A stretch of 63,363 nucleotides of DNA, counting the filler, from Candidatus Woesearchaeota archaeon (lineage in GTDB: Archaea > Nanobdellota > Nanobdellia > Woesearchaeales > B72-G16), in NCBI GenBank assembly GCA_003650545.1. It is 3 parts of 3 records of this genome, joined end to end, with 100 filler letters (N's around TTAATTAATTAA, not from the genome) between each part and the next. Parts side by side here need not be neighbours in the genome. Positions count along the whole stretch, not along the records: positions 45,308 to 63,363 come from QMQO01000026.1; 2 more parts are not named here. One strand, given 5' to 3'. How positions within the stretch are numbered: the stretch's first letter is position 1; the number at the start of each line of letters is the position of its first letter. Positions 45,681-54,207 of this stretch are shown piece after piece. The position numbers and the translations under genes are program-made. Under the pieces are notes generated by a model. That model was not told the DNA's origin, did not search any database, and saw only the letters and a list, made by a program, of their open reading frames with translations.

Positions 45681-46253
45681 ATATAAAACCTCCTTTATTT
45701 ATTTTACCCTGGCCGAACCCGGGTTCAGCACACCCCCTGACATGCCGTCAGACGCACAGAAATGCCCCTAGAATCCATTTTCTCATGCGGGGGTATACCT
45801 ATATATGGGTTCGATCAGTATGGGTTACGGTGTACTAAAAGGTACACCAGACTTATTTTAATTACGACAACGAAAATTGAAGGAAACAGTTTATGAAGAC
45901 TAAAAGTGTAACGTCACATCACTCACCAAATTTCGCATCAGACGCACAGAAATGGGTCTAGAATCCATTTTGTGTAATTTTTACCCATATAAAAAGGATA
46001 TGTCGAAAGTTCGACAGCAGATACATGCATACGATGCATGCATATATTGAACACTTTCGGAGTGATCACCCCCCTGGCCCCCGGAGGGGGGTCTTAGCAC
46101 CCCAAAATGTTCCCTTCTCTCCCCTTCTTCTCCCTTCCTTCTTCCCTTCTCTTATATATCTCATCCTATTAACTATCCCTTATTATCCCCTCTTATCCTT
46201 CATATTAATCGTGCATCATTGCCTTCGATATATATATATAGAGTGTTTTCTTC

Positions 46254-46304
46254 GTAATATATAATTACAGTCTTCGTTTCACTTCGACTGTAATTATATA
46301 TTAC
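46254..46304. repeat. perfect 19-bp inverted repeat
   Basis: GTAATATATAATTACAGTC-13nt-GACTGTAATTATATATTAC. Confidence 0.9.
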
Positions 46305-46417
46305 TTATACTATTAATATCTAACACAGAGCTTCGATCGAAGGCATTTTTACGCGAAGAAAGAGGGTGAAGACGGGGATATTTCGCGCAAAAGTGTCTAA
46401 TTTCGCGAGGGAAAAGT

Positions 46418-46479
46418 TCAGGGTATATATATTAATACATCAATAATAGATTATTAATATATTAATATATATACCCTGA
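46418..46479. repeat. 62-bp near-perfect AT-rich palindrome
   Basis: 20-bp perfect arms TCAGGGTATATATATTAATA / TATTAATATATATACCCTGA with further inner pairing. Confidence 0.9.
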
Positions 46480-47098
46480 GGCGCACTTTACAAGGTTCAC
46501 AGACGGGGACAACCACTGCTGCACTGCGCTGACCCTTGAGGGGTCAGCGCTGCTACGCAAGCCGGCGGTTAGTGTGTATAGCCGGGAGTGTATGCATGCA
46601 CTTCCGGGGGGAAGCATATTTACCCTCATCTGAGAGAAGAGTTTCCCCAAAGCTTCCTCCATAGATCCTTCGTGTAACTATTACAGTAAGGTGCATTTTG
46701 GCACGGTACTTGCGCACATCCCTTCGACAAGCTCGGGGGATGAGCTACTGCCCCCTGACCCCCGGAGGGGGGTTCAGGTTACACATCTGACATGCCGTCA
46801 GACGCACGTAAAGGGGTCTAGAATCCATTTACTCATGCGGGGGTATACTATAGTATACCCCGACTCCGAAAATGCAATACAGCGAAACCTCGTGCGTCTG
46901 AGAGCATTTTAGCGTCTATACGATGGAGCAGCCATCATGCATTTCGAAAAAATTTCGATATTATGCACCCCCCGCCCCCCGGAGGGGGGCAAAAAAAAAG
47001 AAAAGAAGTAAAGTATAGTTCCCATGTATATCGAAAAAATTTCGTTGTTCTCCGGCAGGGCTCACACATGGCAAGCCCTACCGGAGTAACGTTTATTT

Positions 47099-47515: not shown

Positions 47516-48731
47516 TATTCTACCTCCTTTTCTACGACGTTTTCAGCCAATGTGGCTTCTACGTCGTCTTTTGTTGTGTTAATAACAGCTTTCCTTTCGC
47601 CCTCCAGCTTGTCTGCTAAAGAGCGAACTAACTTTGCCGCCGTGCCTCTGTTCTGCTCGACGGCTTTCCCGATCTCAGACCTGATGTCTGATGCTAATTT
47701 CATCAGGTCAGCAATTATTATATTCATACTAATTCCTCCTTTTCGATGATGATCTCGTCGACCACCTTGTTGAAGGCAGCCTCGGTCTCATCCTTCTCTT
47801 TGGCCGCGCTCTCATTTATCATCCCTGCTGCAGCCAGAAACAGGGTGATAATATCAGAAGCCATCCTTTCCAGTTTGGCTTCCTCGTTTTTATCTAAATT
47901 TTCTGGAAATATTATATTCATCTTTTACCTCCTTCCAGGGATGCGAACCAGTCCCATTTTCTCCAGCATCCACAGTAGCTTCACACTGGGATGCTCGGAG
48001 ACTGATGGACATCCCTTCTTGAGCCGAATCAGCGACCTGACCCGGCTTATAACATAATTTTTCTCGTCGTCCGTCGGACTGAGGATGACGTCCTCTTCCC
48101 TGCGACGAGAGTCTCTAACCACGATGGATATCGGCATGATGAGGGCATTGCCATCCTCATCGCACCGATATCCATTTATCACTCTATCTCCCCTTTCTTC
48201 GAGCTCGGTCCTATTGAGATCTAAATTCATCGATCTCCTCCAGGAGCTTCCTGAGTGCCTCGTCGCCGCCTTCGCGCCATGCTCTGCGGAGGATGCACTC
48301 ATGAGCGAGCTCTGCTAATTCATCGAACTCACTCTTTTCTTCTGCGGCGACGGGGAGAAGATCGCCACAGATGCACTCCCCATACTGACGACCATCGGAC
48401 AGTGTCCTGATGGTGTCATCGGGGGCATTAATCTCTTTGCCGCCACAAAAGACGCATGGAGTAGCGGCATATACCTTTTTTCTACGCATAAAAAATCACC
48501 TCCTTATGCGTACTTATCCTCGATTTCTTTCTCCACGACACCAGCGGCATCGTAGATGTCGAGGATATCATCCATTGACAATTTTATGCCCTTTTTCTTC
48601 AGTACGTGAATTATGTCACGTAACTGTGACGGCTTTATTAGATGTTCTTTTACGATTATTTTCTTCTTCATTGTTTCCTCCTTTCGGGGCTCTGTGCAAG
48701 CCCCAATTGATATATCTCTAATGGGAGCCAT
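47515..48731 (-). CDS. run of small hypothetical phage genes (47515-47727, 47724-47921, 47925-48230, 48211-48489, 48504-48671)
   Basis: overlapping stop/start, SD sequences; 48211-48489 has Cys pairs. Confidence 0.55.
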
Positions 48732-48816
48732 GCAAGCACCACTCGGCGCTTCCCAGCACAGCTCCCATGTACTTCCACACCGATCTTGGGTTCCAGAGAG
48801 TTAGATCAGAGTCTTT

Positions 48817-49161
48817 TTACCTTACGTAGACGATGATCTTCCCTCTCAGTTCACCCAGGGTGAAGGCATATACCTTTACCCGTTTGCTTCCCTCTCCTAC
48901 ACCACCGAAGAGGGAGCGGATAAAGGCATATTTCTCTCCCTCGTTAAGTTCTCTGAGGGAAGAGTCCTCGCCCAGAAGAGCCTTTTCAAGCTCATCAGCG
49001 AAGGACGCCTTCGTCTCCCATGTATCTAGCACGAGAGACTCCGCTGGGTGAATGAAATCCAGGATCCTCTTACCTGTCGAATAAGACAGGTATCCTGACG
49101 GGATAACTTTAGTCCCATCAGGAATGATCCTGAACTCCATACCCAAGACCGAGAATGTCAT
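48817..49161 (-). CDS. hypothetical protein, paralog of 51660-51998
   Basis: shared FRIIPDGT..VPSGYLSYSTG.RILDFI.P. Confidence 0.75.
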   Translation of the reverse strand: MTFSVLGMEFRIIPDGTKVIPSGYLSYSTGKRILDFIHPAESLVLDTWETKASFADELEKALLGEDSSLRELNEGEKYAFIRSLFGGVGEGSKRVKVYAFTLGELRGKIIVYVR

Positions 49162-49632: not shown

Positions 49633-50121
49633 CTACTTTATCTTCCTCGGATCCAGGACTATGATCTCCAGCTTGCTCTTGCAAGCCTCGATCATCCTCC
49701 TTGTTCCTCCCGGCAGTCCGGCATATACTGCCAGGAGGACGGACCCTTCCTCCTCGAGCAGCCAATCCTTCATGGCTGCATTTCTCTTTTCCATGCAGCC
49801 ACGAAAGTATGGCTTCGAGGAGACCATTCGTACTTCGTGTGCAGCTTCCAGAAGCCGCTTGTATAGTGCTTGCGACTTTGGAGGCCATACTCTGTCCTGG
49901 CCCGCACAGGGCACGAATGCCACATATGGCACTTGTGTCTCTACACAGGCCAGACAGAATAACTGGTCAACGCCCAGCGCCATCCCTGTGCAGCCAACGG
50001 ATGGCTTCAATTCATGAAGTCTCTCCGTCAGCCACCGCAGGATGGCTTTATTCGCCGGGTGATCCAGGTTATACCCACCCGGCAGAGCACGTGGGCGATG
50101 CCCAGTTACTCCGATCCTCAT
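49633..50121 (-). CDS. DUF1273/YspA SLOG-family protein
   Basis: GVTGHRP, GMALGVDQ, RNAAM, GGT. Confidence 0.85.
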   Translation of the reverse strand: MRIGVTGHRPRALPGGYNLDHPANKAILRWLTERLHELKPSVGCTGMALGVDQLFCLACVETQVPYVAFVPCAGQDRVWPPKSQALYKRLLEAAHEVRMVSSKPYFRGCMEKRNAAMKDWLLEEEGSVLLAVYAGLPGGTRRMIEACKSKLEIIVLDPRKIK

Positions 50122-50321
50122 ACTTTTTCACCTCCTTCCATTGTGTCCAGGCCCTTTCGGTCATCCATGGCTTCCAGGGCTTCCTTCAGATACACCTCGA
50201 AAGGCTTCCTTTCCTTTCGGGGGCCTCTCCTGCTCCCATGTGACCCATGTTGCTGTCGTCCCCATGGGAACAGAAGAGGCTGACAACACTTAATTTTCAT
50301 TTTTCCCTTATCACCTCCTTT

Positions 50322-51254: not shown

Positions 51255-51446
51255 TTATTCTGCTCCACAGAACAGATATCTGTCCTCTACCCAATTAAAG
51301 AGGAGGATGTCTATTGTTTCCCCTCTGGCAACAACGTGTGCTGCCATAACATATCCTCTCTCTTCAAAGAGGACTTCGATATTTACCGAAGCAAAAATGC
51401 TTCGGACATACTTATCAACTTCTCCTAAATTTTTCAGCTTCTCCAT
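51255..51446 (-). CDS. small hypothetical protein
   Basis: AAAGGAGG SD. Confidence 0.55.
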   Translation of the reverse strand: MEKLKNLGEVDKYVRSIFASVNIEVLFEERGYVMAAHVVARGETIDILLFNWVEDRYLFCGAE

Positions 51447-51503: not shown

Positions 51504-51589
51504 TGTTATGCAGCCCGGAAGACGGTGGCTGCTGAGCCGACTCCTTTAACCAACAGCTCTCATGTGTCGGCTCTGTCCATGGAAGCTGT
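51504..51589 (-). ncRNA. pseudoknotted RNA motif, copy B (unclassified)
   Basis: hairpin loop GAGCCGAC pairs with downstream GUCGGCUC; hairpin GCAGCC/GGCUGC. Confidence 0.65.
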
Positions 51590-51596
51590 ATACAGT

Positions 51597-51653
51597 AGGA
51601 GCTCTTGGCGTTACCCAGGGCGGACCACGCGGAGGTGGCTCCCGTACCGCCCC
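51597..51653 (-). ncRNA. minimal HDV-like ribozyme, copy B
   Basis: P1 GGGGCGG/CCGCCCU, P2 GGGAGC/GCUCCU, P3 ACC/GGU, L3 UCCGCGU, GG, J4/2 GCCAA. Confidence 0.85.
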
Positions 51654-51659
51654 AATGTA

Positions 51660-51998
51660 TTAGTAAAGGATCACCTTTCCCGTGATCCCTTTCCTGGCAA
51701 AGGCATATACCTTTACCCGTTCCGATCCTTTACCGACACCTCCGAAGAGGTTCCGGATAAATCGGAACTTTTCACCCTCATCCAGTGCAACAAGGGACGA
51801 TGCCTGGCCACTGAGAGCCTTTTCGAGCTCTTCAGCGAACCATTGGCGCTCGTCCCATGCTGCCAGGACGAGGGACTGCCCCGGATATATAAAGTCCAGG
51901 ATCCTCCTACCTGTCGAATAGGACAGGTAACCTGACGGAACAACACGGGTCCCATCAGGTATGATCCTGAACTCATGGCCCAGGACAGCTCCTATCAC
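51660..51998 (-). CDS. hypothetical protein, paralog of 48817-49161
   Basis: sequence similarity; SD. Confidence 0.75.
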   Translation of the reverse strand: MIGAVLGHEFRIIPDGTRVVPSGYLSYSTGRRILDFIYPGQSLVLAAWDERQWFAEELEKALSGQASSLVALDEGEKFRFIRNLFGGVGKGSERVKVYAFARKGITGKVILY

Positions 51999-52042
51999 TT
52001 TTTGTCACCTCCTTTCTGGGATACAATCCCTGATAAAGGAAA

Positions 52043-52228
52043 CTATTTTCTAGCTTCCTCCATCATAAGCCGATGAGTTTTCCTCATCAGCTTGTTGAGC
52101 TGACTGATCCTAGCCAGCTCCCTCTGGGAATAGAATCCCCGAACTTTCGCCCGGGCATCTATTCCCTTTATCTCCCGCAGGAGATCTTTCTTAAGTTCTC
52201 CTGCAAGGAGCAGACTTTTCAAATTCAT
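52043..52228 (-). CDS. small basic hypothetical protein
   Basis: AAGGAGGTGA SD. Confidence 0.55.
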   Translation of the reverse strand: MNLKSLLLAGELKKDLLREIKGIDARAKVRGFYSQRELARISQLNKLMRKTHRLMMEEARK

Positions 52229-52376
52229 CTATTTCACCTCCTTCCTTCGAGGCCTTTTATGGCCTCTTTCAAAAACTCCGAAAAAGGCTTTTTGGCCTTC
52301 TTCGAAGTTCTCCTGCTCCCATGTGGAGCCCGTTTCCTGGGTCCACGTGGGAACAGGACTTTTCCCATGGGGGCTA

Positions 52377-52799
52377 TCAATGTCCCCTAAGAAGGGCCTC
52401 GAAAGGCCTGTTCTTCGGGGTTGCTTCTCGCAACCTCCTGATACAGGCTTTCATCTCGGCCTTCTTTCTAGCCTTCTCAGCTTTCGCCTTGAAGGCTGCC
52501 TCCCTCTTGAGGAGGTCTTTATAGTACTCCTCAAGAGAGAGAGACAGGACGATCCCTGTCTCTCTTGCCAGCCTCTCGGCCTTCCTAACGAGCCGATTGG
52601 CTTCCTTTCGGGCCTCCCTGGTCCAGGGGACCCGATTGACGGCCCTTTCGGCCTCTGCGATGGCCTTCTTGGCCATCTTTTTCTGCCGCTTTTTGGCGGC
52701 AGCCTCTTTGGCGGCTTTACGCCGCCTTAGATCCTCCTCCAGGAGGATCGCAAACGGAGTTTCAATCCCTTTTACAACTAATCCTTTTTGGTCCATCAT
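52377..52799 (-). CDS. Ala/Lys/Arg-rich helical protein
   Basis: start moved to SD-supported ATG (MMDQK). Confidence 0.6.
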   Translation of the reverse strand: MMDQKGLVVKGIETPFAILLEEDLRRRKAAKEAAAKKRQKKMAKKAIAEAERAVNRVPWTREARKEANRLVRKAERLARETGIVLSLSLEEYYKDLLKREAAFKAKAEKARKKAEMKACIRRLREATPKNRPFEALLRGH

Positions 52800-52842
52800 T
52801 TTGGACCTCCTTTCTGGGGCTGAAAAGAAATAATCACGACAT

Positions 52843-52927
52843 GCTGCATGCAGCTCCTCCATACAGCTGCCGGAGCCGATTTCCATCTACAGCAGCTCCC
52901 ATGCATCGGCTCAAAAATGAGAGCTGT
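52843..52927 (-). ncRNA. pseudoknotted RNA motif, copy A (unclassified)
   Basis: loop GAGCCGAU pairs with AUCGGCUC; hairpin GCAGCU/AGCUGC; covaries with copy B. Confidence 0.65.
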
Positions 52928-52933
52928 TCCATT

Positions 52934-52989
52934 GGGAGCTCTTGGCGTTACCCAGCCCGAACCACGTGGAGGTGGCTCCCTCTCGGGCC
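52934..52989 (-). ncRNA. minimal HDV-like ribozyme, copy A
   Basis: P1 GGCCCGA/UCGGGCU, P2 GGGAGC/GCUCCC, P3 ACC/GGU, L3 UCCACGU, GG, J4/2 GCCAA. Confidence 0.85.
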
Positions 52990-53579
52990 ATCGCTGAGCA
53001 CTACTGTTTGCTCAGTAGGCGTTGGTCACCCGGACGCACTCCCCGGGTAAAAAAAGAAAATGTTTTATTTTGACCCCCTTTACCTGATGAACCACGTAAC
53101 TGGTCAGAGGTGTCTAACCAGTCCGGGCTCATCAGGCAGCCTCATCTGAGGAGAAGGGAAATTAATCTCTTCCCCTCAGATGAGCCTTCAGGTTCCTCCT
53201 CCTCCTCACGGAGAAGGGAACCCGAAGGTCCGGAGAGGTCTCCTTCCTCCGGAGATATACCAATCCCCTTTGGACGAAGACCTCTCCTTGGCATTGGAGA
53301 AGGTCGAGTCGGTCTTGTGAGACCAATCCGACCTTCCCGATGCAAGAAACGTCTCTCATCTCTTTCACCTCCTTTCGGATTATTGTTTTATGCAAAATGC
53401 AAGGGATTAATCCACTTATCCCATTCCTGCAATCACGCTAAGGACCGGAACCAGCCCCGAGGAACATATCCCATATATATTCCTCGATTCTCATCTAGGC
53501 ATCCCCCTTCATGCTCCTCCGGATAACTTCGACGGAGAAGAACATGAAGGTTTCAGCCTTCGACCGACTGACTCTCATC

Positions 53580-53762: not shown

Positions 53763-53898
53763 GGGCGATCACCTCCTTTCTTCCTCCCAATAGGACCGCC
53801 CCTGCTATTGGGAGGTTATTTTTTCGAGGTCCCATGTATCACGCTCTCCCATAAGACTGGGGGGCGTGAAACAAAGAACCCCGAATAAAAAAATACAT

Positions 53899-54118
53899 AC
53901 CATTCCCCGTGAAAATTGGAACCCATTTTTGTTCCACACAAACCATTCCCCGTGAAAATTGCAACAAAAAATTGCTGCACGTAAGATATTCCCCGCGAAA
54001 AATAGTAGAAAAATCTGTCATACATAAGCCTCTCCCTTGCAAACCATCCCGCGTAGAATTTACGTTTGTGTTAGTAAAGAAATCCATCCCGCGTAAACCA
54101 TTCCCCGTGAAAATTGCA
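53899..54118. repeat. iteron/operator-like direct repeats
   Basis: CCATTCCCCGTGAAAATTG x3 (about 53900, 53943, 54098) plus CCATCCCGCGTA x2. Confidence 0.8.
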
Positions 54119-54178
54119 CCAGAAAATTGCAGCAAATAATTGCAGTAAAAAATAATGGTGTTTAGTATGTTTTTGTAC

Positions 54179-54207
54179 TTGACTGCGGGGAGGTGGTGTG
54201 GTATAAT
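54179..54207 (+). promoter_or_regulatory. sigma70/sigmaA promoter with extended -10
   Basis: TTGACT-17nt-TATAAT with TG at -15/-14, heading the plus-strand arm. Confidence 0.8.

Follow-up and report, generated by a model that had tools for sequence, protein, structure and literature searches.

Beyond tRNA processing, what small self-cleaving ribozymes do in phages is for the most part obscure. The closest described relatives of the ribozymes considered here are the theta ribozymes, which Kienbeck et al. 2024 (PMC10879173) present as HDV-like ribozymes without P4, located in non-coding regions of phages and oriented in sense to their neighbour genes. In their account, these ribozymes mainly cut immediately behind a tRNA, and no conserved pseudoknot downstream is described. 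The same text counts 526 minimal HDV-like matches that are not associated with tRNAs, 493 of them in non-coding regions, and gives their function as unknown.

A second system, this one engineered, is RiboJ, in which the sTRSV hammerhead ribozyme is followed by a 23-nt hairpin. PMC6206723 reports mRNA levels about 2-fold and protein levels 2-10-fold higher with this arrangement; its authors consider it possible that the hairpin stabilises the mRNA, and they mention the suggestion that exposure of the ribosome binding site (RBS) is aided by it. A third is the HDV-like ribozyme at the mRNA 5' end of L1Tc, for which PMC3185411 describes an activity set by the downstream fold, the sequence downstream of the ribozyme being able to inhibit it. 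Finally, pistol (RF02679; PMC4604425) and pseudoknot-hammerhead ribozymes (PMC11300833) share an order of helix strands in which the loop of one hairpin is paired to the segment that links the left shoulders of two other stems. The pseudoknot measures 6 bp in both, and the pseudoknot-hammerhead core comprises the loop C3-A9 and G12-A14, with 11 conserved nucleotides (PMC11300833). In pistol, P1 is described as short, and the cut falls in a P3/P2 dinucleotide whose length is strictly conserved (PMC4604425); ten of its nucleotides are highly conserved.

Set against the first three systems, the locus described here resembles the theta ribozymes in that P4-less HDV-like ribozymes stand in a non-coding region of an apparent phage, in sense to the neighbour genes. 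It departs from their main context in that a tRNA is absent (none found by ARAGORN, no Rfam tRNA match) and in that the conserved partner lies downstream. As in RiboJ, a self-cleaving ribozyme and a folded add-on are placed ahead of an RBS, with a defined, structured 5' end predicted after cleavage. In contrast to the engineered combination of a hammerhead with a simple hairpin, the ribozyme is HDV-like and would be kept on the mRNA, and the add-on is a putative pseudoknot together with a hairpin. The resemblance to L1Tc lies in an HDV-like ribozyme at an mRNA 5' end whose activity may depend on the fold downstream. L1Tc, however, is a eukaryotic retrotransposon whose downstream sequence attenuates cleavage and has no homology to the element found here. 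A full-text literature search, of incomplete coverage and hence no proof of absence, returned no description of a cassette made of an HDV-like ribozyme and a downstream pseudoknot.

The window analysed, 63,363 nucleotides in full length including filler, joins three contigs of one metagenome-assembled genome of a Candidatus Woesearchaeota archaeon. Both cassettes of ribozyme plus element are located on the minus strand of the third contig, C26 (45308-63363, 18,056 bp), which looks like a phage fragment and whose DNA is present in one sediment metagenome run. Its genes encode SSB, an N6/N4 DNA methylase, ribonucleotide reductase, a SLOG-like protein and many small orphans. On the minus strand, a long operon of small genes that use GGAGG ribosome sites extends from ~53762 down to 45360, and a plus-strand operon begins opposite it, preceded by a near-consensus sigma-70-type promoter (54179-54207).

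Cassette A is followed by a minus-strand gene for a 140-aa basic protein (52377..52799), whose strong Shine-Dalgarno (SD) site, AAAGGAGGU, lies ~35 nt past the element. Some public annotations hold a 169-aa version of this gene with a start at 52886, within the element itself. Behind cassette B is a gene for a 63-aa protein (51255..51446, minus strand), its SD site ~55 nt past the element; neither protein has a family match. A 112-aa orphan gene (51660..51998, minus strand), a paralogue of 48817-49161, ends just ahead of ribozyme B. Relatives of the neighbour proteins were found neither in viral contigs (0) nor in genomes of the same order (0/400), and among 5.8 billion proteins the matches were only the window's own two paralogues. 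The ESM Atlas gave nothing usable for the 112-aa protein. A protein cluster look-up placed the same neighbour proteins on one further contig (35,353 bp).

Ribozyme A (52934..52989, minus strand) is a minimal, P4-less HDV-like ribozyme that starts at its predicted cut 5' of G52989 and ends at C52934. Base-by-base inspection of its helices gives P1 as GGCCCGA/UCGGGCU, P2 as GGGAGC/GCUCCC and P3 as ACC/GGU, with the L3 loop UCCACGU followed by GGGUAACGCCAAGA. Ribozyme B (51597..51653, minus strand), of the same type, has the P1 GGGGCGG/CCGCCCU; its predicted cut 5' of G51653 falls 6 nt past the stop codon of the 112-aa gene, and it ends at U51597. Common to both are a 7-bp P1 opening with G1.U, a 6-bp P2, the P3 ACC/GGU and an L3 of UCC(A/G)CGU that again continues into GGGUAACGCCAAGA. 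The two score 33.3 and 27.3 bits with the HDV ribozyme model RF00094 and match it only at relaxed thresholds, the gathering score being 50. These low scores presumably reflect the missing P4.

A scan of viral contigs for the ribozyme core alone returned eight loci, five of them with a perfect 7/7 P1; in the other three, P1 paired at just 5-6 of 7 positions, and we regard these as chance. Together with ribozymes A and B, the five (L042, L043, L045, L048 and L049, from four contigs) form a family of seven from five contigs. Across these seven sequences, P1 and P2 covary, being all unlike and always complementary, with P2 5-6 bp long and present in five different sequences, around an unchanged core, ACC-UCCNCGN-GGU ... 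CUGGGUAACGC. The features of minimal or theta ribozymes, that is a 7-bp P1 with G1.U, P2, a 3-bp P3, a 7-nt L3, the P1.1 GG and a J4/2 from C, were present in 7/7. Divergent yet complementary helices around an invariant core make the identity of the ribozymes well supported, and their pattern of variation places A and B with the minimal HDV-like or theta ribozymes of phages.

Seven nucleotides separate the P2 3' strand of each ribozyme from the first helix of an element of ~85 nt (AAUGGAA in A, ACUGUAU in B). The earlier note had placed such an element shortly after each ribozyme, with a hairpin of 10-12 bp, an 8-bp pairing of its loop and a second hairpin of 6 bp; the positions agree, and each of these helices was recovered base by base. 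In element A (52843..52927, minus strand), P1 pairs 52926-52917 with 52902-52893 (10 bp, one U.G), the pseudoknot helix (PK) joins the loop 52912-52905 to 52880-52873 (8 Watson-Crick bp), and P3 pairs 52870-52865 with 52855-52850 (6 bp). In element B (51504..51589, minus strand), the corresponding helices are 51589-51578 with 51564-51553 (12 positions, one C.A mismatch), 51573-51566 with 51541-51534 (8 bp) and 51532-51527 with 51515-51510 (6 bp). P1 is separated from the downstream PK strand by 12 nt in A and 11 nt in B, and P3 begins 1-2 nt past PK. Read as an H-type pseudoknot, the element has an L1 of 4 nt over the 8-bp stem and an L3 of 11-12 nt, purine/A-rich, over the 10-12-bp stem, lengths that appear sterically plausible for such a fold. 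The best description of the element's core is an H-type pseudoknot next to a 6-bp hairpin.

A fourth helix, P2, which the earlier note had drawn as a closing stem, is doubtful. Its pairs exist (52892-52888 with 52848-52844, 5 bp, in A; 51550-51547 with 51508-51505, 4 bp, in B), but the two stems occupy different alignment columns, and adding P2 to P1 and P3 changes the energy by -0.6 kcal/mol in A and +2.3 kcal/mol in B. In the RNAalifold prediction, which independently recovers PK and P3, P2 is absent. The point is of consequence for the resemblance to pistol pointed out in the earlier note, since the order of strands, a-b-a'-c-b'-d-d'-c', coincides with that of pistol and pseudoknot-hammerhead ribozymes provided P2 is accepted; otherwise the H-type pseudoknot and hairpin remain. 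Set beside pistol, both copies form P1, PK and P3, and P2 amounts to 4-5 bp on non-homologous columns, energetically neutral or unfavourable.

This order raises the question of whether the element is itself a self-cleaving ribozyme of a new class, with a connectivity like that of pistol or the pseudoknot-hammerhead, so that two cuts would release a ~150-nt RNA of ribozyme plus element. In phage DNA, as Weinberg et al. reportedly observed in 2015, self-cleaving ribozymes are often close neighbours, which would suit such a pair. The core of hammerhead ribozymes carries the motifs CUGANGA and GAA, and this core is missing in element B. The corresponding junction reads CUGUAGAUGGAA in A and UUGGUUAAAGGA in B, and the junction from PK to P3 is CG or A, not GAA. 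Models of pistol, hammerhead, twister, twister-sister and hatchet gave no match at E<=10, either over a 1.9-kb region or on the elements alone; we reject membership in pistol and in the pseudoknot-hammerheads. With P2 drawn as in the earlier note, one A makes up the P3/P2 junction in either copy, as opposed to the cut-bearing dinucleotide of strictly conserved length in pistol (PMC4604425). The element also differs from both classes in its 8-bp pseudoknot and in conserved core nucleotides that are apparently missing, and from pistol in its P1 of 10-12 bp. For the ten highly conserved pistol nucleotides, the lack of any model match speaks indirectly against their presence. With P2 weak and few unpaired bases kept between the copies, a second ribozyme is very improbable.

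The element was also compared with the ribozyme that precedes it. As a decayed tandem copy of the ribozyme it was rejected, with 897, 44, 28 and 865 of 1000 shuffles scoring at least as high as observed in four comparisons. As an HDV-like ribozyme in its own right it was likewise rejected, lacking the nested double pseudoknot, G1.U, L3 UCC..CG, the P1.1 GG and the J4/2 catalytic C.

Energies offer a further view of the fold. P1 plus P3 amount to -22.8 kcal/mol in A and -26.0 in B, and the PK duplex to -12.5 and -14.1, compared with -32.7 (A) and -27.3 (B) for the best nested fold of the element. On these calculated values, P1 and P3 together with the PK duplex would be competitive with the best nested fold. 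The P2 of the ribozyme and the P1 of the element both contain the sequence GGGAGC with its complement, and by modelling, alternative pairings between these two helices are possible. In nested folds of the whole leaders, which cannot represent the ribozyme's own pseudoknots, the P2 3' strand of ribozyme A pairs with the P1 3' strand of its element at a probability of ~1, and P1 of element B has a probability of 0.07.

The strength of pairing would not convince alone. Dinucleotide shuffles matched the score for a hairpin with loop pairing in 6/2000 cases for A and 11/2000 for B, and the same score was attained in 29/2396 sliding 92-nt windows of C26, so that such pairing is uncommon yet not unique on this contig. 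The comparison of the two copies carries more detail. In a structure-guided alignment of the two (A4), the columns of P1, PK and P3 are identical at 41/48 positions (85%), as against 12/55 (22%) of the unpaired columns, the latter being close to random expectation; the conserved blocks are mutually complementary. In the seven altered helix columns, two pairs are cleanly compensatory (U-A to C-G, once in PK and once in P3), alongside one one-sided, wobble-compatible change and one U.G to C.A. The latter two fall in P1, where compensatory changes are zero. The suggestion in the earlier note that all helices covary was therefore too strong: covariation rests on two base pairs, in two related copies on one contig, and the shuffle control for it (170/500) is uninformative with two rows.

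Local alignment of the two loci extends from the ribozyme to P3 (52980-52866 with 51643-51528), and the flanks and downstream genes are unrelated. The unit of similarity is ribozyme plus element. Since the unpaired columns have drifted to approximately random identity, the duplication of this cassette is old. Loop indels between the copies are not multiples of three, and protein-coding constraint is therefore not the cause of the conservation. The 169-aa start within element A, the one coding explanation at hand, has no equivalent in B, and the indels break every frame. We read the conserved complementary blocks as probable purifying selection on RNA structure.

One may still ask whether the element has any function, or survives from a duplicated segment, its complementarity being accidental or derived from palindromes at the DNA level (CAGCTG, GCATGC). 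There are just two copies on one contig that is rich in strong hairpins, P1 is without covariation, and for the elements in isolation the z-scores of the minimum free energy (MFE) are ordinary (-1.46 and -0.28). Against these points stand the gap between helix strands and unpaired positions, helix changes that are compensatory or isosteric, and module boundaries that match the structural boundaries. Absence of function is unlikely on this balance, and the element looks like a genuine RNA structure, conserved and not yet catalogued, that is joined to two minimal HDV-like ribozymes.

Comparison with Rfam, which the earlier note had proposed, is consistent with an uncatalogued structure. Rfam 15 at gathering thresholds gave no matches over the whole window, and each element alone, searched at E<=10 with lax filters, matched no family. 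A covariance model of the element (R2), also proposed in the earlier note, retrieved just the two copies from their own genome and nothing from related genomes (0/150); on 12 loci, no score exceeded 10.3 bits. Exact and degenerate patterns of ribozyme or element gave 0 matches in three scans of viral contigs; three loci from another such scan were judged by eye to be chance, the P1 partner not being seen. In metagenome contigs, which are under-searched because the spacing of the pattern was too rigid and would miss relatives of the L042 type, the one locus obtained (L011) had a best P1 of 5 of 7 and is attributed to chance. Genome contigs yielded 0 matches and then two loci with a P1 of 4-5 of 7, again chance. 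There were no blastn matches in 50,697 phage records; in 100 related genomes the best ones (L004 and L005) are apparently protein-coding and look like chance.

The earlier note had regarded the element as fused to each ribozyme. This holds for the two copies on C26 and fails for a third, decayed ribozyme-like remnant (48776-48721), which is without a downstream element. Similarly, the element does not occur behind the related ribozymes of other viral contigs (0/5), so that the idea of a new cassette of ribozyme plus pseudoknot retains the lack of an Rfam match and loses its generality. Absent behind five of five relatives and behind the decayed third copy, the element is therefore not required for this ribozyme family. 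It is lineage-specific, so far found in one phage only.

What follows the related ribozymes is varied. On a contig of a giant-virus MAG, an intron-containing tRNA gene begins 5 nt past the ribozyme (L042); behind L043 stand a hairpin and a U run, and L045 lies ~45 nt ahead of an SD and ATG. The two ribozyme copies L048 and L049, on one contig, are each followed by the same conserved AU-rich hairpin, which is an independent case of a ribozyme duplicated along with a downstream fold. The tRNA and the hairpin with U run of L042 and L043 would fit a role of ribozyme plus element as a stable, processed non-coding RNA of ~150 nt. At C26, however, neither copy shows a terminator or a second processing site past the element, and the strong SD of the next gene is reached within 35-55 nt. 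A small RNA is accordingly a highly unlikely product of this locus.

Our preferred reading, held tentatively at a probability of about 0.4, takes the element as an RNA structure that is specific to its lineage and under selection, and that belongs to a bipartite leader module in the early operon of a phage. The first part, the HDV-like ribozyme, would cleave the polycistronic transcript at the ribozyme 5' end and remain on the downstream RNA; cuts 5' of G52989 and G51653 would produce mRNAs with a 5'-OH, beginning with the ribozyme fold and continuing into the pseudoknot and hairpin. The second part, 7 nt past the ribozyme, would be the very stable H-type pseudoknot and the 6-bp hairpin beside it. 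Their fold may lock the sequence 3' of the ribozyme and so keep it from invading the ribozyme helices, and ribozyme and element together could form a compact mRNA 5' end, resistant to nucleases and to Rho, ahead of an exposed Shine-Dalgarno site. The analysis establishes which strands can pair, how far they are conserved, where the module begins and ends, to which family the ribozymes belong and that no database entry matches; we infer that the ribozymes cut in vivo, that the pseudoknot forms and that the module stabilises or insulates.

An insulating or stabilising leader is favoured by the inhibitory effect of sequence downstream of an HDV-like ribozyme and by the RiboJ precedent, as given in PMC3185411 and PMC6206723. 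The related ribozymes, too, appear to precede structure, as the hairpins after L048 and L049 suggest. Against the leader reading, the ribozyme fold alone already caps the 5' end, and it is not evident why a further stabiliser would be needed.

A leader could also serve regulation, the pseudoknot acting as an operator that binds a small ligand, or a protein of phage or host, and thereby co-regulates translation or decay of both downstream genes. The leader pseudoknot of phage T4 gene 32 and the pseudoknots of ribosomal-protein mRNAs are parallels for such a mechanism. One element ahead of two unrelated genes would be explained by it, and helix strands that are nearly unchanged in sequence (41/48), where free covariation might have been expected, suit sequence-specific recognition equally well as structure. 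Between the copies, however, only 6/21 junction columns are kept, a figure that speaks against a core for catalysis or ligand binding, and the P3 loops agree neither in length nor in sequence. Moreover, the element stops 35-55 nt short of the SD without conserved pairing to it, and no RNA-binding protein was recognised among the neighbour genes of the cassettes. We consider an operator rather doubtful.

The most far-reaching alternative is a new class of functional RNA working with the HDV-like ribozyme, namely a pistol-like pseudoknot that is self-cleaving or responds to a ligand or protein. The cassette would then release or switch an RNA of ~150 nt, or gate cleavage via the shared GGGAGC/GCUCCC strands. 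We hold this reading, its possible modes of action included, to be quite improbable.

Returning to the two-part leader, its interest is for now limited by the fact that the element comes so far from a single phage. A ribozyme duplicated together with a dedicated, highly stable pseudoknot ahead of unrelated genes nevertheless suggests that phages build modular leaders that first cut and then fold, a design invented synthetically as RiboJ. If confirmed, the cassette would represent a natural HDV-based part that both insulates and stabilises, and it would give a concrete function to minimal HDV-like ribozymes that are not associated with tRNAs.

A decayed, ribozyme-like remnant lies at 48721-48776 on the minus strand, directly 3' of a paralogous 114-aa gene (48817-49161). 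It retains GUAC..GGGAGC, CUGGGAAGCGCCGAG and GCUCCCAU, lacks the P1 and P3 helices and loop L3 of the ribozyme fold, and is not followed downstream by the pseudoknot element.

Upstream of ribozyme A, the minus strand displays strong structure over ~190 nt (53000-53190). This stretch includes a long, near-perfect hairpin at 53139-53186 (minus strand), which overlaps the end of a 65-aa ORF, as well as a nested CUGAUGA...UCAUCAG stem and a U run; a comparison of the structured stretch with Rfam returned no match. The gene downstream of cassette A (ribozyme A with its pseudoknot element) is given as 169 aa in some public annotations, with its start AUG at 52886 inside the element. The 140-aa form, preceded by a strong Shine-Dalgarno sequence at ~52810, agrees better than the 169-aa form with the remainder of the operon.

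The top pseudoknot scores of the contig fall in the regions of two small paralogous minus-strand ORFs, at 52234-52380 and 50118-50300, which have ..LFP.G..HGSRR..KPF..LKEA.. in common and are separated by synonymous third-position changes. Both harbor a long internal hairpin, CUGUUCCCA.../...UGGGAGCAG. Between divergent operons, a direct repeat (AAACCATTCCCCGTGAAAATTG..., unit of ~43-45 nt) occurs in five copies at 53897-54152, adjoining a near-consensus plus-strand promoter at 54179-54207; these repeats may serve as operators or iterons. The region 45737-46990, at the contig's far end, contains 62-nt repeated units at 45737-45798 and 46787-46848, and a GC-rich palindromic motif, CCCCCTGGCCCCCGGAGGGGGGT, is found there three times (46070, 46751 and 46968).

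Turning to loci from the scan of viral contigs, L042 (= L021) carries a ribozyme of the same subfamily at 283-341 on a giant-virus MAG contig, with an identical core, CUGGGUAACGCCAAGA. An apparent tRNA gene begins 5 nt downstream of this ribozyme and appears to contain an intron of ~130 nt; ARAGORN made no call for it.

Two further loci, L048 and L049 (285-341 in each), are nearly identical minimal HDV-like ribozymes spaced 892 nt apart on one viral contig. The same AU-rich hairpin, GUUUUUAAAAUACA...UAUUUAAAAAC, follows the ribozyme by 4-12 nt in both. This pair is a second instance of a ribozyme and its downstream fold being duplicated jointly.
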